DNA of 64,000 nucleotides from Spirochaetia bacterium (lineage in GTDB: Bacteria > Spirochaetota > Spirochaetia > DSM-2461): NCBI GenBank assembly GCA_963666985.2, contig CAXXIA010000001.1, positions 704,001-768,000 of the forward strand. The letters run 5' to 3'. The position numbers and the translations under genes are program-made. The notes under the pieces are model-generated. The model was not told where the DNA came from and ran no database searches. It was given only the letters and a program-made list of their open reading frames with translations. Below, in pieces: positions 25,793-37,644 of this stretch (positions are counted from its first letter, which is position 1; each line of letters opens with the position of its first letter).

Positions 25793-26323
25793 GTGATGAT
25801 GGTTCTGTTGTTCGCCAAGCTGCTGAGCGCCCTTACAGCCTATGGACGTCCCGGCCGGATCGCGTTTGCCATGGCTCTGGGTCTTATGCTGGCCCTTATT
25901 CCGGGAGGTACGCTTCTTTGGATTATCCTTTTTGTACCTCTGATGCTTGTTCGAATTAATCAGGCCGCCTTATTGGGAACCATGGGCGTTTTCCGTTTGT
26001 TGGCGCCTCTTTATGATCCGTTTTCCGAGTCTCTGGGCTACCGATTGCTCACCCTTGATGCCCTCTATCGGCCGATGGGACGATTTTTAAGCGTTCCTTT
26101 TATCGGCTGGCTGCGATTGGATGATTCTTTTGTTTTCGGCGGATTGGTTCTCGGATTGATTGCTCTGCCGGTTGCCTTCTTTGTTTTCCGGCTGCTTGTA
26201 GGGCTTTATCGGCGTTTCCTGGCCGGAAAAATCAAGGCCGTATTTCATCGGATCGGAGCGAAAGTACCGCTTATTGGGCGCCTTGCCAAAGCCGTAACGG
26301 CCGTCCGGGGAGGTGCGTTATGA
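25793..26323 (+). CDS. TIGR03546/DUF2062-like membrane protein
   Basis: P..IA.A.ALG.MLALIP, P...LGY.LL, F..GGLVLG pattern; coupled to the next gene. Confidence 0.7.
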   Translation: MMMVLLFAKLLSALTAYGRPGRIAFAMALGLMLALIPGGTLLWIILFVPLMLVRINQAALLGTMGVFRLLAPLYDPFSESLGYRLLTLDALYRPMGRFLSVPFIGWLRLDDSFVFGGLVLGLIALPVAFFVFRLLVGLYRRFLAGKIKAVFHRIGAKVPLIGRLAKAVTAVRGGAL

Positions 26324-28341
26324 AAAAAGTAAAGAAGGAAGCCGAGGCGGGAAGATCCAAGGCGTCTTCCGCTGAAAAAACTCCGAAAATACCCGGAGCC
26401 TTTCGCAAGCCTTTGAAAAAAAGGCGCTTTGGGAAACTGATCAAGATGCTCACCGACTCCGGCGAGATAAAAATCTTGGAAGCCGCTTTTCCCGAAGGTG
26501 CGGACGGACGCCGGCGCTACAAAGCGCCGGCGGAGAAAAAGAAAGCGAAGGAAATCGCCGTTATTCTTAAAAAGGTCCGAAAAGCACGAAGCGGCCCGCG
26601 CACGGTCCGTCTGATTTTCGTGGTAATACTCATTGGTGTTCCGGTTATCTTCAGCGCGCTGTTTCTTGATCGAACAGCTTCACGTCGGCTTGAAGGAATT
26701 CTTGAAAAACAGACGGGAACCGACGCAACCGTTGCAGGTCTGGACATTTCTATTCCGAAGGGGAGTATCCGAATAGGAAAACTTGCTTTGGCATCCCAAT
26801 CGGATCCGATGATTGATGAATGGGTCCTGGAAAATCTGGCGGCCGATATTCGATTAACTTCGCTTTCTTTTCGGAGGGTGATTATCGACGAAGTTTCCGC
26901 CGAGTTCGCCATGAAAGTTCCCAGAGAAACGTCGGCCGTTTATCCCGGGAAAAGGGCGAAAGAATCCGAGGAGAAGAAGGGCGGCGGATTGAGTTTCGAT
27001 ACGGATTTGCTTCCGAGTGTGAATCTTCAATTTGATTCGGCCGATTTGGTTCCGTCTATGCGGGAAGATTTGGAAGCCGAATACAAGGATTTGATCGATG
27101 GCTTGGATGACGATATCGATGAAGCCCGGGAAGTCGGTGAAAGAGCCGCCGAACTGTTAGGTCGCTCTTTGCCCGGGAAAAACGATCTTGCCGGATGGAC
27201 CGCGTTGGTGACGGACGGAAAAGATCTCGCCGAAGATTTGAAGTCTCAGAGCGAAATAATTGAAGAATACCGAACTCGAATAAGCCGGGCCGCCGAGACG
27301 GCGAAAGAAGCATCCGAAGAAGCCCGCCGGGCCGTGGAAAAAGATTTGGCGAAGATTGAGGATGCCGTTTCATTTGATCGCAATACGCTGAACGAATGGC
27401 TCGGATCGGCAATAGGTTCTTATTTGGGGCCCAAAGCCGAGGTGATTTTCAATAAGATAAACGCTTTGCGTTCCCCTTCGGGCGAAGAGACGAGGGAAAG
27501 CCGAACAAAACGTTCCGAAAAAGGCCGAATGAAAAGCGGACGCATCGTTTCTTTCCCGGTCCGTCTTCCTCCGCGCTTCAGTATCGGGAGAATGCATTTC
27601 AGCGCTCTCGGAGCCGAACTGAACGGAACGAATGTCGGTATCGACCATGATTTGGCGGGTGCGCCCTCGGTGCTGAATCTTGAGATTAGCGGCATGAGCG
27701 GAGTTGAAGGATCTCTTGCCGCCGATCTTACCGTGGACGGCCGGAGCGGGGCGGATAGGATTATAGACGGAAAGGCCGCGAGCTCCGGATGGGCATGGTC
27801 TACGGGATCCGGCGAGGATGATTTGGGCGGAAACCTGGAAGCGACGGCGGATTTTTTCGTGAATGCGGAGAATCCCGATCTGTTCGCCGCATCAGGGAAA
27901 GCCGTTATCTCGAACTGGAGCGGACGTTTGAGCGGCGGAACGGTGGATATCGTTTCCGCCGATTCTCCCCCGCTGGCGGTCGAATACGAACTGACAATAG
28001 AACAGGGTGTTCCGCTGCTGAAGCTTTCCCTTGCGGAAGGCATGTTTGAAAGCTGGAGTAAAGCGCTGGCGGAATCGATTCTGCCTCTCGGAGCCGAACA
28101 GGCAAAAGCGGCGCTGTTGGATGCCGTCGGTGATGATTTGGACGGACTTGATGAGGTGCTTGGGAATCTTAACGCCGAAAGCGCGGATTTGAATGATCTC
28201 GGCAATCTTCTGGATTCACAGGAACGCAAACTCGAGGAGAACCTGCAAGATTGGACGAATAAGGCGGCCGGCGGGATGAACATTCCCGGAACCGAAGATA
28301 TCGCGGAGAAAGCCGCAAAAGGATTGAAGTCGTTATTTTAG
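26320..28341 (+). CDS. TIGR03545-like (AsmA-related) membrane-anchored protein
   Basis: Single TM segment, beta-rich region, coiled coil, GR.V.FP motif; usual partner position after a TIGR03546-like gene. Confidence 0.6.
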   Translation: MKKVKKEAEAGRSKASSAEKTPKIPGAFRKPLKKRRFGKLIKMLTDSGEIKILEAAFPEGADGRRRYKAPAEKKKAKEIAVILKKVRKARSGPRTVRLIFVVILIGVPVIFSALFLDRTASRRLEGILEKQTGTDATVAGLDISIPKGSIRIGKLALASQSDPMIDEWVLENLAADIRLTSLSFRRVIIDEVSAEFAMKVPRETSAVYPGKRAKESEEKKGGGLSFDTDLLPSVNLQFDSADLVPSMREDLEAEYKDLIDGLDDDIDEAREVGERAAELLGRSLPGKNDLAGWTALVTDGKDLAEDLKSQSEIIEEYRTRISRAAETAKEASEEARRAVEKDLAKIEDAVSFDRNTLNEWLGSAIGSYLGPKAEVIFNKINALRSPSGEETRESRTKRSEKGRMKSGRIVSFPVRLPPRFSIGRMHFSALGAELNGTNVGIDHDLAGAPSVLNLEISGMSGVEGSLAADLTVDGRSGADRIIDGKAASSGWAWSTGSGEDDLGGNLEATADFFVNAENPDLFAASGKAVISNWSGRLSGGTVDIVSADSPPLAVEYELTIEQGVPLLKLSLAEGMFESWSKALAESILPLGAEQAKAALLDAVGDDLDGLDEVLGNLNAESADLNDLGNLLDSQERKLEENLQDWTNKAAGGMNIPGTEDIAEKAAKGLKSLF

Positions 28342-31039: not shown

Positions 31040-31888
31040 TTATCGATTCAGAGAGAGTATTTCTCTTGCCTCCATAGGAGTGGCCGCTTCACAGCCGTAC
31101 TCTTCAATGATTCGTTTGGCGCGGGCGACAAACTGCATATTGCTCTCGGCCAGCTGTCCCTTCTTATAGAGAACATTATCTTCCATGCCCACACGGATGT
31201 TTCCGCCCAGGGCGATGCCGGCGTACATCGTTTCCATGGCTCCCGCTCCCACACCGAAGGTTGACCACGTGGAACCGGGAGCGACTTCTTCCATGGATTC
31301 CTTCATGAATACCAGGTTTTTCGTGCTTGCTTTTATACCGCCGGCAACACCCATGCAGAACTGAAAATGCAGAGGAGCTTTCAGAACGCCTTTCTTCAGA
31401 TAATAAGCCGCATTGTAAATCATGCCGGGATCGAAAACTTCAATCTCGGGCTTCACGCCGACTTCCTGCATCATCGTTCCGAGTTTTTCGAGGAATTGCG
31501 GATTGTTTTCGAAAACGGCCGAGTGCTGCCAGTTCATGGTGCCGCAGTCGAACGTGGCGATTTCCGGCTTCAACTCATAAAAAGGTTTGAGGCGGTCCTC
31601 CTCTTTCAGGTTGATGCCGCCGGATGTTGTAAGGTTGATGATGATATCGCAGTCCGAACGTGATTTGAGTAATTGAACGGTTTCTTTAAATTTGTTGAAA
31701 TCCATACAGGGCCGGGATTCATCGTCCCTCACGTGGATATGACAGATGGCGGCACCTTCTTTCCAGCAGTTGTAGATTTCTTCCGCGATTTCTTCAGGTT
31801 GAAGCGGAACATTCGGATTGTTTTCTTTTGTGGGCCATGCACCCGTTGTTGCAACGGTTATAATGCGTTTATTTTTTAGATCATTCAT
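31040..31888 (-). CDS. Beta-keto acid cleavage enzyme (BKACE/DUF849 family)
   Basis: ITVATTGA, PEEIA, HIHVRD (Zn ligands), PEIEVFD.G, GGNIRVGMEDN. Start set at ATG 31888. Confidence 0.92.
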   Translation of the reverse strand: MNDLKNKRIITVATTGAWPTKENNPNVPLQPEEIAEEIYNCWKEGAAICHIHVRDDESRPCMDFNKFKETVQLLKSRSDCDIIINLTTSGGINLKEEDRLKPFYELKPEIATFDCGTMNWQHSAVFENNPQFLEKLGTMMQEVGVKPEIEVFDPGMIYNAAYYLKKGVLKAPLHFQFCMGVAGGIKASTKNLVFMKESMEEVAPGSTWSTFGVGAGAMETMYAGIALGGNIRVGMEDNVLYKKGQLAESNMQFVARAKRIIEEYGCEAATPMEAREILSLNR

Positions 31889-31905
31889 ACGTTTTTCCTT
31901 CTTTA

Positions 31906-33072
31906 TTAAGTCAATCGTTCGAAAATACCCGCGGCGCCCATACCGCCGCCTACGCACATGCTGACCATGCCGTAGCGTCCCCCGGTCCGTTCCAGAAAGG
32001 ATAATGCTTTGCAGGAAAGCATGGCTCCCGTAGCGCCCAGAGGATGTCCCAGCGCCATTGCGCCGCCCCAGGGATTAACCTTTTCGGGATTCAGTCCCAG
32101 AGTACGGATACAGGCCAGAGCCTGAGACGCGAAGGCTTCGTTCAGCTCGATAACATCCATATCGGCCGCTGAAAGTCCGGTTTTCTTCAATACTTTCGGA
32201 ATGGCTTCAATCGGACCTATTCCCATGATTTCCGTCGGAACACCGGCGGTGGCATAGGAAATGAGCCGCGCCAAGGGCCGAATCCCTTTCTCGGCGGCTT
32301 TGTCGGCGCTCATCAATACGGCAAACCCCGCTCCGTCCGTCATCTGAGAGGAGGTTGCCGCCGTAACGATTCCATCTTCCTTGAAACATGGAACCAATTC
32401 GGCGAGAGCTTCCATTGTGGTCGCGGGGCGAATCCCTTCGTCGCGAATTATCGCTGGATTGGTTCCGTTTTCGTCCGGTACGGTAACCGGAATAACGTGA
32501 TCGTCAAAGAAGCCGGCCTTCTGAGCCTCGGCCGCCCGCCGATGGCTCTCCACGGCCATGGATTCCATTTCTTCGCGTGTGATTCCGTACTCTTGCGCAA
32601 CATTCTCAGCCGTCAATCCCATGGCGATATAGGCGCCCGGCCGGTTTTTTTCCAGCCAGGGATTGAATGTTTCGGGAGAGGGCGCCATGGGTACCAGACT
32701 CATTGATTCCACGCCGCCCGCGACGATGATCTCTTCTTCTCCGCATCGAATACTGTTATTGGCGGATGCGATGGCCTGGAGTCCCGAAGAACAAAATCGA
32801 TTAATCGTTTGAGAAGAAACACTGTCCGGAAATTCGGCTCTCTGTAAAATGAGCTTGGAAATATTCCAGCCCTGAACACCGAAGGGCATCGCACAGCCGA
32901 CGATAACATCGTCGATTTCCTTCGGATGCAGCGAGGGGATTTTTTTGAGAACTCCCGTAAGCGCCTGTGCTCCAAATTCAACGGGATGAAGGTTCGAAAA
33001 AGATCCCTTTTTTGCCTTTGCGCATGCGGTTCTTCCGTACGCGACAATAACGGCATCATTCGATTTAAGCAT
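31906..33072 (-). CDS. Thiolase (acetyl-CoA C-acyltransferase)
   Basis: INRFCSSGLQ, NEAFA, GHPLGATG, MCVGGGMG. Confidence 0.96.
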   Translation of the reverse strand: MLKSNDAVIVAYGRTACAKAKKGSFSNLHPVEFGAQALTGVLKKIPSLHPKEIDDVIVGCAMPFGVQGWNISKLILQRAEFPDSVSSQTINRFCSSGLQAIASANNSIRCGEEEIIVAGGVESMSLVPMAPSPETFNPWLEKNRPGAYIAMGLTAENVAQEYGITREEMESMAVESHRRAAEAQKAGFFDDHVIPVTVPDENGTNPAIIRDEGIRPATTMEALAELVPCFKEDGIVTAATSSQMTDGAGFAVLMSADKAAEKGIRPLARLISYATAGVPTEIMGIGPIEAIPKVLKKTGLSAADMDVIELNEAFASQALACIRTLGLNPEKVNPWGGAMALGHPLGATGAMLSCKALSFLERTGGRYGMVSMCVGGGMGAAGIFERLT

Positions 33073-33089: not shown

Positions 33090-34499
33090 TTACTTGAGGT
33101 TGTACTGATTCATTTTCTGATAAAGGACATTACGCGAAATGCCTAAGAGCTCCGCTGTTCTCACCCGATTTCCTTCGGCCGCGGTCAGAGCATCCTTAAC
33201 AAGCTCGCGTTCGAAAACACGCTTGGCGGACTTGAGATGATAAACGGACGTTTCAGGTGATGATGTGCGATTCTTTACATACATTCGCTTGATGAGCCGA
33301 TCAAAATCTTTTTTCCGCAGAGTAGGCGAATCGGCCATATTCATCGCGCTTTCGATGACGTTCTGCAATTCCCTGACATTCCCCGGCCAGTCGTGTTCCA
33401 ACAGAATATTCATGACTTCCGGTTCCACGCTTTCGATAACCATTCCAAGTTGAAGATTCAGCTTTTGGATCAGGTGCGTTACCAACAAGGGGATATCTTC
33501 TTTCCTGGAGCGCAGAGGCTCGGCTTGAATCCGGATGACATTCAATCGAAAAAACAAATCGCTTCGAAATTGACCGATTTCCACAAGATTTTCCAAAGAT
33601 ACATTCGAAGCCGCGATAACGCGAACATCGATGGGAACGCTTTTATTTCCGCCCACCGGATCAACTTCCATTTCCTGTATGACTCGGAGAAACTTCGGCT
33701 GCATCGTCGCCGTAAGAAGATTAACTTCGTCAAGGAAGATCGATCCGCCGTCGGCAAGTTCAAATCGTCCTATTTTTCCTCTCTTCGAGGCACCGGTAAA
33801 AGCTCCCGCGGCATACCCGAAGAATTCGGATTCCATAAGATCGCCCGGAATAGCGGAACAGTTGACCCGAACAAACCGGGATGTTCTTCGGGGGCTTGCG
33901 GCATGAATGGCATGAGCGATCAATTCCTTACCGCAGCCTGTTTCCCCTTCGATAAGAACGGTTGAGGATGATCGGGCCGCCTGAATAATCTGTTCCTTTA
34001 AATGACGAATCGATTCGCTTTTCCCGATGATATTGTCCAATCCGTAACGGGCTCCGCGTTCTCGGGAAAGCTCATGTTTATAGAAATCCAACTCACGCGT
34101 CAGCGTGTTGATTTGCTGAATGACTTGCTGAGCATTCGTCAATCCGTTGATAATGACATAAAGGAAAACACCGGACACGGTACCGTCGGGCGCGAATCGG
34201 GGAATATATGTGGTAAATGCCGGGATTTGCCGGCAGCATACCGGATTGCCGAAAACCGGCTTTCCCGTGCGAAGAACCTCACCGGCGGCCGTGTCGGGGA
34301 TAATGTCCCAAACTCTTTGTCCGATAACCTCATCGGCTGAAAATCCCGTATATCGTTCCCAGCCGGGACTGACGAAGGTGTACAGTCCTTCGCCGTCCAG
34401 TACCGCCATGATGAGATCGTTGATGAATTCCATTGCGGTTTCATGATCCAAACATTTCCGCAATGCGCATCCCCCTCTTTCCCGTTTACCGTATTCCAT
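33090..34499 (-). CDS. PAS-domain sigma54-dependent activator
   Basis: N-terminal PAS domain, GETGCGKE, GAFTGA, WPGNVRELQN, Fis-type HTH. Confidence 0.93.
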   Translation of the reverse strand: MEYGKRERGGCALRKCLDHETAMEFINDLIMAVLDGEGLYTFVSPGWERYTGFSADEVIGQRVWDIIPDTAAGEVLRTGKPVFGNPVCCRQIPAFTTYIPRFAPDGTVSGVFLYVIINGLTNAQQVIQQINTLTRELDFYKHELSRERGARYGLDNIIGKSESIRHLKEQIIQAARSSSTVLIEGETGCGKELIAHAIHAASPRRTSRFVRVNCSAIPGDLMESEFFGYAAGAFTGASKRGKIGRFELADGGSIFLDEVNLLTATMQPKFLRVIQEMEVDPVGGNKSVPIDVRVIAASNVSLENLVEIGQFRSDLFFRLNVIRIQAEPLRSRKEDIPLLVTHLIQKLNLQLGMVIESVEPEVMNILLEHDWPGNVRELQNVIESAMNMADSPTLRKKDFDRLIKRMYVKNRTSSPETSVYHLKSAKRVFERELVKDALTAAEGNRVRTAELLGISRNVLYQKMNQYNLK

Positions 34500-34580: not shown

Positions 34581-36548
34581 TTATGAATACTTCTTTGCCG
34601 CCGCGGAACCTTTTTCCGTAATTCTTAACTTGCGCTTAAACAAACCTTTTTCCACGATATACCCCTGACGGGTCAGATGAGCGGAAATGGCGGCCATATG
34701 CATTGATTTAATCGAATGCTTTTTCACGAAATCGGCCTGATTCTCCGGATTGTTTTCCACCAGATTAAGGAGTTCGATATAAACGGGCGTGAGTCCTTCC
34801 TGCGCCATCTCGGCTTCGGAACCCTTCAAACCCGGAAGAGCGGCCGAGCCTTTTTCCGTGATGGAAAAAGTAAAGAACTTAATGCCGTTTTTCCCTTCTC
34901 TGACAATGTATCCGCCTTTATCAAGTGTTTCGATCGCGGCCGATGAGGTTTTTGAGTCGACGCCGAGCGTATCGGTAATATCCGACATATAGAGATGTCC
35001 GACACGGATTAATTGAAGAACTTGCTTCGCCATGTCGTCCAATTCCACATTGATTCGATTGGAATCGGTGGGAACCAGTTCCCAATTCTTTTCTCCGTAA
35101 TATTTCGGTTTGTCCGTCAAGGTGGCGATAACGGCGACAACAAGAGTAATAATAAATCCAAACGTTGCCAGGAAAATGTGCTGGTTAATTTGGAAAACAT
35201 GAAGAATTGTTCCCAGGACGGTGAAAGTCGCCATGGAAATCATTCCCGCCGAAGCGCCCCAGAGAGCTCCTCGGGCATTGAAGCGGGGCCATACGGCGCC
35301 CAATCCCAACAGAATCGCCGGGGGAACCAGCCAGCAGTTGGAGAAGGCGAACAGGTATGTGGGACCGCCCGGGAATTGACAAAGAATCCAGGTGAGAACG
35401 CCGATGGCGACCATGATATATTTGGAAGCCCTCAGTCCCTGTTCTTTCGTGGCATTGGAATTGATGAGGCGCTGATAAATATCGCGGGTTGCCACCGCGG
35501 AAGCTCCGAGAGTGGCCGTGGAGGCGGTAGAAATGGAAGCGGCAACGGCTCCGATAACGAAGAATGATCCCAAAAAGGGTACGAACACTTTAACGATAAC
35601 ACCATAGGCGGCCGTTTGAGGTAAGCTTCCGCCTCCGGGAATGAAGCTGTCTCCGAAAAAGGCGCCCGCGTAAGCTCCCACGATGCCTAAAGGAATCATG
35701 AAAAGAAGAGACAGGATGACGGCGGCCAGAACGAAAGACTTTCTTGCGACTTTTTCGCTTCGGCAGGAAGCCACTTTCATCCAGTAGTAGTTGTTTCCCC
35801 AGACAAGAGCGGCGGCGAAGCAGATGATGAAATTCAATATGGACGGATAGGTTAATTTTCCTCCCGGCAGCTTGGCTCCGCCGATACCGGCGGCGACGAA
35901 GTTCCCGCCGGGCCAAGCGGCGTTAATCGCATCGAAACCGCCGAATTTCTTGATAAGGAGAGTCAGAAGAAGCGGAACGGCCACAACACCGATAACAACC
36001 TGGAAAAAGTCGGTGATGGTCGCGGCCCAGAGACCGGAAATAAACGTAAAGCCGATAATGATTATGAAAATAACGGCGACGATGATAATCTGATTCCATC
36101 CTGTGAATCCCGTGATTGTATTGGCACAGGAGACGATGTTGTTGGCAAGAATGCCGGTCATGCCGATTACGCTGGTAATCGCGACGACGGAGCGGACCGT
36201 GCTGTTGTATCTCATTTCAAGATATTCGGGCAGGGTTTGAGCGCCGCAGCGGCGGATAAACCGGGCAAAGACCAAGCCGAACAGCATGAGACCGCAGATC
36301 GCGTAGATCAATCCCCAAAACAGGGATGCTCTGTATCCCATTAAAACGGTGAAACCCGGTGCGAGCGCGATGGTCGTACCGGCGAATCCGATGGCGCAGA
36401 CTCCCATCATGTTGATGACAGTCGACACTTCGCGTCCGGCAAGAATGAAGTCGGAAGACTCGGACACCCAGCGTTTTGAGTAAATGCCGGCGCCTACGAG
36501 AATCGAAGCGAAGACGATGAACATGATCAGGAAAATGGTTGTTGTCAT
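34581..36548 (-). CDS. Sodium:solute symporter fused to two C-terminal winged-helix-like domains
   Basis: SSS motifs (DFILAGR, TLPEYLEMRYN, GLWA..ITDFFQ, AASISTAS) and about 13 hydrophobic segments, then a soluble tail of about 175 aa with two GYIV...ITEKGSAA repeats. Confidence 0.88.
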   Translation of the reverse strand: MTTTIFLIMFIVFASILVGAGIYSKRWVSESSDFILAGREVSTVINMMGVCAIGFAGTTIALAPGFTVLMGYRASLFWGLIYAICGLMLFGLVFARFIRRCGAQTLPEYLEMRYNSTVRSVVAITSVIGMTGILANNIVSCANTITGFTGWNQIIIVAVIFIIIIGFTFISGLWAATITDFFQVVIGVVAVPLLLTLLIKKFGGFDAINAAWPGGNFVAAGIGGAKLPGGKLTYPSILNFIICFAAALVWGNNYYWMKVASCRSEKVARKSFVLAAVILSLLFMIPLGIVGAYAGAFFGDSFIPGGGSLPQTAAYGVIVKVFVPFLGSFFVIGAVAASISTASTATLGASAVATRDIYQRLINSNATKEQGLRASKYIMVAIGVLTWILCQFPGGPTYLFAFSNCWLVPPAILLGLGAVWPRFNARGALWGASAGMISMATFTVLGTILHVFQINQHIFLATFGFIITLVVAVIATLTDKPKYYGEKNWELVPTDSNRINVELDDMAKQVLQLIRVGHLYMSDITDTLGVDSKTSSAAIETLDKGGYIVREGKNGIKFFTFSITEKGSAALPGLKGSEAEMAQEGLTPVYIELLNLVENNPENQADFVKKHSIKSMHMAAISAHLTRQGYIVEKGLFKRKLRITEKGSAAAKKYS

Positions 36549-36609
36549 AATAACCCCTTTTCGTTTTTAGAAATCACCGGTTTAAAAAATCAAACCGGTA
36601 AATGTCGTG

Positions 36610-37377
36610 TTAATCCAGAATGGCTACGGCACGGCACCAGCCGGCGGATGCTTTCTTGATATTTATAGGGAGACAATGAACGGTAAATCCGGTGAGAGGA
36701 AGTTTGTCCAAATTCGTCAGTTTCTCAATATGACAATAAGCCTTATCCCGACCGACGCGGTGGGCTTCCCAAATGATGGAAGGATCATGATTTTGGGAAA
36801 ATTCCTCTCCTTCAAAAGGAAGGGGAACGTCCCAGCTCCAGCCGTCGGTACCGACGACTTTCACGCCGCGGTCGAGAAGCCACATCGTCGATTCGTAGCT
36901 CATGCCGGCTCCGGCCGAGAGATATTTCGGTGTTCCCCAATGTGCGTCGGCTCCGGTTCGCAGGAGAACGATATCTCCTTCCTGCGGAATGTAATTCACG
37001 CTGTTGAAATATTCTTCAACGTCGGCCGCGCTGATTTTGTATCCGTCAGGCTTCGACGAAAAGTCCATTTTTACACCGTTCCCGATACACCATTCCAGAG
37101 GGACTTGATCGATGGTCCATGCCGCCTCCCCGCCGTTTTGCGTGGGATAATAGTGCCACGGAGCGTCGATATGGGTTCCCGAATGAGTACAAACCTGTAA
37201 AAAGTCGATGGCCCAGCCGTTTCCTTCCGGTAAATCATCGACGGTCGCGCCTTTGAAGAAACCGGCCATTTGTTCGGCCGTTTCTTTATGATTTAAATAT
37301 TGAATCTTCGGTATCTGCATGGGAGGGTCGCTCGGCAGACCGTCTTCGAGCGCAATTGATAAGTCAATAATTTTCAT
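36610..37377 (-). CDS. Cyclase-family metal-dependent hydrolase (KynB/isatin hydrolase-like)
   Basis: IIDLS, HSGTHIDAPWH, GDIVLLRTG, VGTD, HIEKLTNLD.LP, RAVA. Confidence 0.92.
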   Translation of the reverse strand: MKIIDLSIALEDGLPSDPPMQIPKIQYLNHKETAEQMAGFFKGATVDDLPEGNGWAIDFLQVCTHSGTHIDAPWHYYPTQNGGEAAWTIDQVPLEWCIGNGVKMDFSSKPDGYKISAADVEEYFNSVNYIPQEGDIVLLRTGADAHWGTPKYLSAGAGMSYESTMWLLDRGVKVVGTDGWSWDVPLPFEGEEFSQNHDPSIIWEAHRVGRDKAYCHIEKLTNLDKLPLTGFTVHCLPINIKKASAGWCRAVAILD

Positions 37378-37429: not shown

Positions 37430-37445
37430 AGCAAAAAATGTGCCA
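37430..37445 (-). promoter_or_regulatory. sigma54 promoter of the cyclase-SSS-activator-thiolase-BKACE operon
   Basis: Minus strand reads TGGCACATTTTTTGCT, a perfect TGGCAC-N5-TTGC. Confidence 0.85.
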
Positions 37446-37486: not shown

Positions 37487-37644
37487 TGTAATCTTTCTTC
37501 GATTCCGCAAGGCTGGAAGAGAAGTGTAATGAAAAGAATACACCAAGAAAGAGCCTTTGAAGAATAATCTAATCAAATCATTATGTAATAACGAAATATT
37601 TTAAAATGTAATGTTTTTATTACGCAGACTCTCTTTTTATTACA
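37487..37644. promoter_or_regulatory. Candidate activator binding sites TGTAAT-N6-ATTACA
   Basis: TGTAATGAAAAGAATACA (37525-37542), TGTAATGTTTTTATTACG (37607-37624), plus half-sites at 37487, 37584 and 37639. Confidence 0.6.

Follow-up and report, generated by a model that had tools for sequence, protein, structure and literature searches.

In sodium:solute symporters (SSS family, SLC5), the Na2 site consists of two Ser/Thr residues in core helix 8 together with backbone carbonyls (PMC7918813). The cytoplasmic add-ons of prokaryotic members that are described in the accessible sections of the same review are STAC and kinase modules, carried for example by CbrA and CrbS/MxtR, and the STAC domain occurs both fused to the symporter and as a separate protein (PMC7918813). 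A census of transmembrane regulators, likewise accessible in part, contains a single SSF architecture, of the LysR type, which differs from the tandem fusion described below (PMC10269533). The window analyzed here is a stretch of 64,000 nucleotides from a Spirochaetia bacterium (GCA_963666985.2, contig CAXXIA010000001.1, positions 704,001 to 768,000). Its gene at 34581..36548, on the minus strand, is a reading frame of 655 residues, uninterrupted by stops, in which an SSS body is followed by two winged helix-turn-helix (wHTH) units, WH1 and WH2. As in CbrA and CrbS/MxtR, an SSS body is joined to cytoplasmic domains; unlike in those proteins, wHTHs account for the whole tail, with no STAC, PAS or histidine-kinase domain, and the distinction that the initial annotation drew from the STAC-kinase fusions is upheld. 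A winged helix is as a rule a DNA binder. Judged from profiles and neighborhoods, however, the tandem module marks a deep clade of the SSS family, and a modeled complex inclines us, with some reserve, to the view that the pair has been co-opted as a cytoplasmic cap modulating the transporter. The protein is laid out as follows.

35109..36548, minus strand: SSS (SLC5, LeuT-fold) membrane body, residues 1-480 (Pfam SSF, Foldseek, conserved Na2-type Ser340/Thr341)
35052..35108, minus strand: conserved cytoplasmic linker P-K-Y-Y-G-x3-W (alignment; the equivalent segment lies in the modeled interface)
34833..35042, minus strand: WH1, residues 503-572, predicted docking face (AlphaFold2, structural alignment, conservation)
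34593..34793, minus strand: WH2, residues 586-652 (AlphaFold2, structural alignment, conservation)

The membrane body belongs to the SSS family by profile, fold and Na2 residues, and lies outside the named subfamilies. Residues 34-435 match Pfam SSF (E 1.7e-26; 93.5 bits against a curated cut-off of 22.8). TIGR00813 scores 112.9, below its cut-off of 184, the equivalog cut-offs of PutP, PanF, MctP and VC_2705 are missed (43-69 bits against 320-625), and the score stays under the cut-off of every named NCBIfam model. The best Foldseek match is SiaT (5nva, target TM 0.80, E 7e-13), with the LeuT-fold core present, and SGLT, NIS and CHT1 are also matched, these four with 16-19% identity; over the solved members as a whole, identity is 12-19%. 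The Na2 positions, assigned via a sequence pattern, are almost invariant in a weighted comparison of 225 fused sequences (A337 96%, S340 100%, T341 99%). Since the Ser340/Thr341 pair is kept, this is probably a working symporter, whereas CbrA is described in the accessible text as lacking the Na2 residues (PMC7918813).

The tail alone matches Pfam HTH_27 in two stretches (E 1.6e-10) as well as MarR_2. Its AlphaFold2 model is confident (pLDDT 96.4, pTM 0.88), and the model and structural alignment place three helices and a beta-hairpin wing in both units. Each half superposes on wHTHs of the MarR/PadR type (Z up to 11, rmsd 2.4 A over 71-83 residues), the alignments to MarR chains mostly covering only the wHTH core of 64-83 residues. 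The two similar wHTH-like units that the initial annotation had read after a complete symporter are thereby confirmed, and structure prediction followed by structure search, as it had proposed, yields a confident wHTH fold in each half. No solved chain fits both halves in a single superposition. Foldseek with the tail returned nothing at E 0.001 or better, which says nothing on the newness of the arrangement; the weak structural neighbors include the tandem wHTHs of SelB, SarS and AlkX (E 0.005 or weaker). Tail matches in the ESM Atlas, at 0.75, serve as leads only, and the full-length family is present there as automatically named clusters. At the protein level the repeat between WH1 and WH2 is real: its local score is 56, and the highest of 2000 shuffles reaches 44. 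The duplication had also been reported as visible in the DNA, and CCTTTTTCCGT is indeed found at 34609 and 34849, but this carries no independent weight because the shared ITEKG peptide already dictates the similarity: an equal or higher score comes up in 597 of 1000 codon-resampled nulls, and DNA-level duplication was rejected as separate evidence.

Searching with the tail retrieved 170 proteins, 120 of them listed. An alignment-based genome scan confirmed 113 relatives, the best 80 of which underlie the locus counts given here, the other 33 not being included; an earlier scan with the tail alone had confirmed 0 of 94 pattern matches. The tail is present in 79 of the 80 listed loci, the remaining one ending at a contig edge. 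These loci belong mainly to Bacillota, with Fusobacterium and spirochaetes in addition. That the fusion might be an assembly artefact or a functionless remnant is hardly credible. Chimeras can be seen among the database proteins in a few cases (P0002, P0004, P0135, P0186), but several phyla share the architecture, in complete genomes and in those of isolates, and the mean identity to the window protein over 119 homologues is 67% for each winged helix against 70% for the membrane part; the artefact is ruled out on these two grounds. With the tail as conserved as the membrane part and found in nearly every locus, the initial annotation was right to treat the fusion as genuine, and the comparison of domain architecture and synteny that it suggested brought out a conserved family with recurrent neighbors. 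The four chimeric proteins, together with P0221, contain duplicated or grafted tail segments, apparently products of metagenome assembly.

Within 401 Bacillota genomes, the tail profile matched 9 genomes, and a profile of the membrane part only gave 10 loci with at least 426 bits, all within those 9 genomes; the next-best score, 220 bits, belongs to ordinary SSS proteins of 470-480 residues. Neither a high-scoring transporter without the tail nor a tail without the transporter was found in these 401 genomes. The tail also persists with the transporter among unrelated enzymes (aldehyde:ferredoxin oxidoreductase, molybdo-hydroxylase/UbiD, SDR). Other N-termini, found in 14 of 115 representatives, are last-helix fragments or apparent chimeras, with no recurrent second fusion partner among them; a tail-profile search for longer proteins missed even known fusions and is uninformative in this respect. 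At one locus (L139, G667:C47:174-6191), two tandem copies of an SDR and a divergent fused symporter surround a distant cyclase. Another 400 genomes from the phylum of the window yielded no orthologue, only wHTH matches of 60-100 residues. In a tree made by a quick method, without a one-clade test, the window protein pairs with a spirochaete sequence and is nested among Bacillota sequences, suggesting gene transfer from Bacillota into the window lineage; the GC content of the cluster gives no sign of foreign origin.

Like STAC, the module is not always fused. An exhaustive tail-profile search produced 116 representatives (115 new ids), 34 of which appear to be complete free-standing proteins, about 160 residues long. 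In all four split cases inspected, two archaeal and two bacterial, the tandem wHTH gene lies near a transporter of this clade that itself lacks the tail. In L093, on a Natronococcus megaplasmid, and in L094/L095, which are 98% identical to a protein named Bathyarchaeota, the wHTH gene overlaps the transporter stop codon, with a cyclase and a FAH-family hydrolase close by. In L138 it is located upstream and overlaps the transporter start codon, and in L137 one esterase gene stands between the two. The split forms fall at two places among the fused forms in the quick tree. Separately encoded tails, which the initial annotation had linked to an assembly artefact, thus do occur in some homologues, but as natural split forms beside the transporter and not as assembly errors. 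Both archaeal split transporters retain the PKYY-type linker, and in addition they keep 55-70 residues that show a weak alignment to WH1 (L094:5800-6033, L093:8650-8873), possibly a remnant of a fused tail. Kynureninase-like and indoleamine dioxygenase-like genes, identified by eye, lie upstream of the haloarchaeal cyclase-FAH-symporter operon (L093:1966-4490). Two deep clade members, L138 and L141, are accompanied by an aldehyde:ferredoxin oxidoreductase and a xanthine/uracil permease, or by a molybdo-hydroxylase and UbiD, a hint that the wider clade may import aromatic or heterocyclic compounds.

The L094 split pair was modeled as a complex and scored 0.66, the best of three controls scoring 0.00; among solved complexes 116 of 157 reach the mark used for this score, among mismatched pairs 2 of 215. 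The runs have at least 57% of contacts in common, with a partner pLDDT of at least 77. Of the 38 partner interface residues, 30 are in WH1 and 8 in WH2, and conservation is higher at the interface than elsewhere (p 0.02). In window numbering, the transporter contributes G38-I45, R96-A103, E108-R113, R263, A418-P421 and the PKYY linker, WH1 contributes Y520-D526, S532-R550 and the wing K553-S568, and the WH2 residues include G635-F637 and R639. In the model, WH1 has its helix 2, recognition helix and wing buried against the cytoplasmic loops of the transporter. These are the faces that a winged helix uses for DNA, so WH1 should be unable to hold DNA and the transporter together. The model supports binding of the tandem wHTH to the transporter, and for the fused protein a full-length pTM of 0.83, above the 73% share of the membrane body, suggests that the tail has a fixed position on the body. 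Mutual information between body and tail was uninformative (effective depth 76, top cross pairs implausible).

The two units also differ in surface chemistry. WH1 has a pI of about 5.1, the positions of D523, D526, D531, E540 and D543 are 95-100% acidic, and its wing is aromatic (F558-F559-x-F561). Across 85 non-redundant tails, the turn and helix 3 of WH1 have a mean net charge of -1.65, against +0.94 in 16 MarR controls, and the wing contains 3.6 Phe/Trp/Tyr against 1.4. MarR-type DNA-binding regulators have a D-x-R motif in the wing; it is found in 0/85 WH1 units, 0/85 WH2 units and 16/16 controls. WH2, in turn, has a pI of about 9.9 and the wing G635-L-F-K638-R639, while its recognition helix varies across the wide family.

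Around the symporter gene, the window contains the following features.

31040..31957, minus strand: beta-keto acid cleavage enzyme (BKACE) that, like triacetate acetoacetate-lyase, has Trp where KCE has Glu14 (profiles)
31906..33072, minus strand: thiolase (domain profiles)
33090..34499, minus strand: PAS / sigma54-activator / HTH_8 enhancer-binding protein (domain profiles; the true start may be TTG at 34463)
36610..37377, minus strand: metal hydrolase of the cyclase family, at the head of the operon and outside the DPGC subtype (PF04199, E 8e-37)
37431..37445, minus strand: sigma54 -24/-12 promoter, 68 nt upstream of the cyclase (sole exact match in the window)
37525..37542, no strand assigned: second copy of the palindrome given in the next line (1 mismatch)
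37607..37624, no strand assigned: palindrome TGT(A/C)A-N8-T(G/T)ACA, which is probably an upstream site for the sigma54 activator (1 mismatch)

Counted within 7 kb of the transporter in the 80 loci, many of which are cut by contig ends, the cyclase is found 76 times, the sigma54 activator 64, BKACE 54, the thiolase 49, an acetyl-CoA hydrolase/transferase 24, a metallo-lactamase-fold hydrolase 9 and TrmB 5. Where the cyclase leads and the activator is near, the -24/-12 motif precedes the cyclase in 42 of 44 loci (0.5% expected) and the palindrome lies upstream in 34 of 44 (2.2 expected). The palindrome occurs in none of the 12 loci that lack the activator and still have the tail, so it would belong to the activator. 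No conserved hairpin was found before the transporter gene (8 of 56 loci at z below -2), and a scan for sigma70 promoters and terminators stayed at chance level. The window itself has a strong hairpin between cyclase and transporter (36576-36599, z -3.3), unconserved across loci. Farther away, at 25793-28341, the gene of a 176-residue membrane protein overlaps that of a 673-residue membrane-anchored protein; the genes next to this pair are presumably Maf-like and rpsB.

Why would a symporter carry two copies of a DNA-binding fold? According to the reading that we prefer, a clade of Na+-coupled importers comes with a tandem wHTH, mostly fused and sometimes as an adjacent gene of about 160 codons. 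The start of helix 2, the recognition helix and the aromatic wing of WH1 would grip basic cytoplasmic loops at the inner gate, through contacts at G-R39-E, I-R99-R100-x-G, E108-R113, R263, the W420 loop and the PKYY linker, with the G-L-F-K-R wing of WH2 sitting near the transporter and the membrane. Such a cap would most likely tune transport, acting as a brake or feedback element that favors or blocks the inward-open state, and transcription would be left to a separate regulator, the PAS-sigma54 activator in the window and TrmB elsewhere. The initial annotation had instead seen a one-component transporter-regulator, whose tail binds DNA, RNA or the adjacent sigma54 activator. Its fold and its fusion stand, but the role of DNA/RNA regulator draws little support and is disfavored because the module tracks the transporter clade one-to-one while regulator and enzymes change, because the operon owns a sigma54 promoter, a palindrome and an activator, because WH1 is net acidic and neither wing has D-x-R, and because the model buries the DNA-type faces of WH1 on the transporter. 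Nor can binding of the activator be the general function, since archaea, and loci with TrmB in place of the activator, retain the tail. A modified form of the regulatory idea takes docking to be reversible: the idle transporter would sequester the tandem wHTH until transport frees or re-orients it, whereupon the basic WH2 would bind DNA or RNA, linking expression to uptake. Sequestration by transporters has precedents in Mlc-PtsG and MalT-MalK. The complete wHTH fold of both halves, the high pI and conserved Lys/Arg wing pair of WH2, its small part in the modeled interface (8 of 38 residues), free-standing forms that could diffuse, and weak structural neighbors that bind nucleic acid all speak for such release. 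However, no candidate operator tracks the tail, the sole upstream palindrome tracking the sigma54 activator (no de novo motif search was made in the 12 activator-less loci). A dedicated regulator is usually adjacent (sigma54-type in 64 of 80 loci, TrmB in 5), the WH2 recognition helix is unconserved, there is no conserved RNA hairpin before the transporter gene, and most members are tethered. We therefore regard reversible sequestration as unlikely, and the same holds for its general form, in which a bacterial-archaeal clade has its own wHTH subunit, docked on the inner gate in one conformational state and freed by transport, whose WH2 then acts on DNA, RNA or a partner. If true, it would be a transport-gated one-component switch on an SLC5 carrier, in fused and two-gene versions.

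It is also conceivable, if improbable, that the docked pair is an adaptor that recruits the cyclase for substrate channeling, or the PAS-sigma54 activator. WH2 is mostly free in the model and the cyclase is the steadiest neighbor, being present in both archaeal loci too, at 43-48% identity; yet the activator is absent or replaced by TrmB in several lineages, and the 18 kb retrieved for L138 and L141, which have the module, contain no homologue of the cyclase. A purely structural subunit, needed for folding, insertion or stability and without regulatory input, seems quite improbable. It would agree with the strict co-occurrence of tail and transporter, the overlapping reading frames in three split pairs and the large predicted interface. 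Against this, other SSS proteins of 470-480 residues do without such a tail, the conserved wing residues of WH2 are not obviously required, and the isolated SSS domain of CbrA is described, in the accessible text, as transporting without its cytosolic domains (PMC7918813). A cap that tunes transport has its own difficulties. The docking model is silent on any effect on transport, and a regulator that docks and is released would dock too. The alignments behind the complex were self-built and contain fused homologues, so that the calibration holds only roughly; halves of split genes tend to pass the complex test, and no similar solved complex was found among the structure matches. The net charge of WH2 (+2.5) is close to that of MarR (+2.3), with R627, K638 and R639 kept, and the acidity of WH1 is suggestive only because several of its acids (positions of E540, D543 and D523) are commonly acidic in MarR proteins too. 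The recovery by the membrane profile is partly circular because 5 of the 10 loci seeded that profile, and the palindrome pattern was picked by eye from the same sequences that were counted. Finally, the neighborhoods of free-standing forms were taken from 4 lineages of roughly 34 representatives, and some free-standing tails lie on short contigs and are possibly fragments of fused genes.

What might such a transporter import? In phloroglucinol breakdown, as far as the accessible part of the source describes it, a cyclase-family hydrolase (DPGC) acts together with a dehydrogenase, a BKACE (TAL) in which Trp replaces KCE Glu14, a thiolase and a CoA transferase (PMC10470551). The window BKACE has the same Trp and shares 67% identity with the TAL-type gene in the Flavonifractor porci phloroglucinol cluster; in a strict motif scan with 32 locus-residue matches, 23 loci have Trp at this position and none Glu. 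Directly adjoining the symporter cluster of Flavonifractor porci is a complete cluster of the phloroglucinol type (SDR, 3-hydroxyacyl dehydrogenase, DPGC-type cyclase and TAL-type BKACE; L037:3562-7364), and the BKACEs of the two clusters are 99.6% identical as proteins. The window cyclase is 28-31% identical to DPGC-type proteins and has P-S-D-P where the Trp20/Tyr22 pair is expected. The PGR and TfD oxidoreductases are absent from the window cluster, and the SDR and 3HCDH families recur in just 3 and 2 of 81 loci. With its cyclase, BKACE, thiolase and CoA transferase, the cluster probably ferments a cyclic beta-dicarbonyl via triacetate: the cyclase would open the cargo to a beta-keto acid such as triacetate, and the other three enzymes would turn this into acetyl-CoA and acetoacetate. 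The best fit, though no more than an even bet, is that the substrate of the window subgroup, for instance a 4-hydroxy-2-pyrone, a pyridone or a phloroglucinol-like ring, hydrolyzes straight to triacetate or a similar beta-keto acid. Six further BKACE homologues, two of them beside thiolases, are encoded in genome G000 (C1:54226, C1:329858, C2:2290370, C2:2321023, C2:2645746, C2:2696969).

If the wHTH pair is a cap, the family would be a testable case for cytoplasmic control of a LeuT-fold inner gate, for which the natural split pairs are suited to reconstitution, and neither such fusions nor the free forms of about 160 residues should be called transcription factors. The family also marks an uncharacterized catabolic cluster in flavonoid-degrading gut bacteria (Flavonifractor, Eubacterium ramulus, Lawsonibacter, Intestinimonas), probably feeding triacetate into short-chain fatty acids. 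Like the PGR-DPGC-TfD-TAL cluster, in the part of its description that is accessible, this one has a cyclase-family ring opener, a BKACE with Trp for Glu14, a thiolase and a CoA transferase; unlike it, it has another cyclase subtype, no conserved PGR or TfD, an SSS transporter in place of a major facilitator, and sigma54 control (PMC10470551). It would be a pathway parallel to the phloroglucinol cluster, for another substrate.

The combination of an SSS body with a tandem wHTH was not found described in the literature searched, which covered few subscription journals; the initial annotation likewise knew of no characterized example. The body resembles SLC5 symporters such as SiaT, vSGLT, PutP, CHT1 and NIS in its SSF match, its LeuT fold and the Na2-type Ser/Thr pair in core helix 8, and differs from them in a cytoplasmic tandem wHTH of 175 residues, not seen in the listed matches. 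Its units share with MarR/PadR-type regulators the wHTH fold and the L-x3-G-Y ... T-x-K-G pattern, but there are two of them per chain, lacking D-x-R, with an acidic WH1 and aromatic wings. Repeated wHTH units are found in ScpB, ESCRT-II, SarS and the C-terminus of SelB as well, in another relative arrangement (TM-score 0.35 or less, rmsd 8-18 A), and ScpB and ESCRT-II use theirs for protein contacts. The tandem wHTH appears to be a second add-on of SLC5 proteins, unrelated to the STAC and kinase modules, in which a DNA-binding fold has turned into a transporter subunit.

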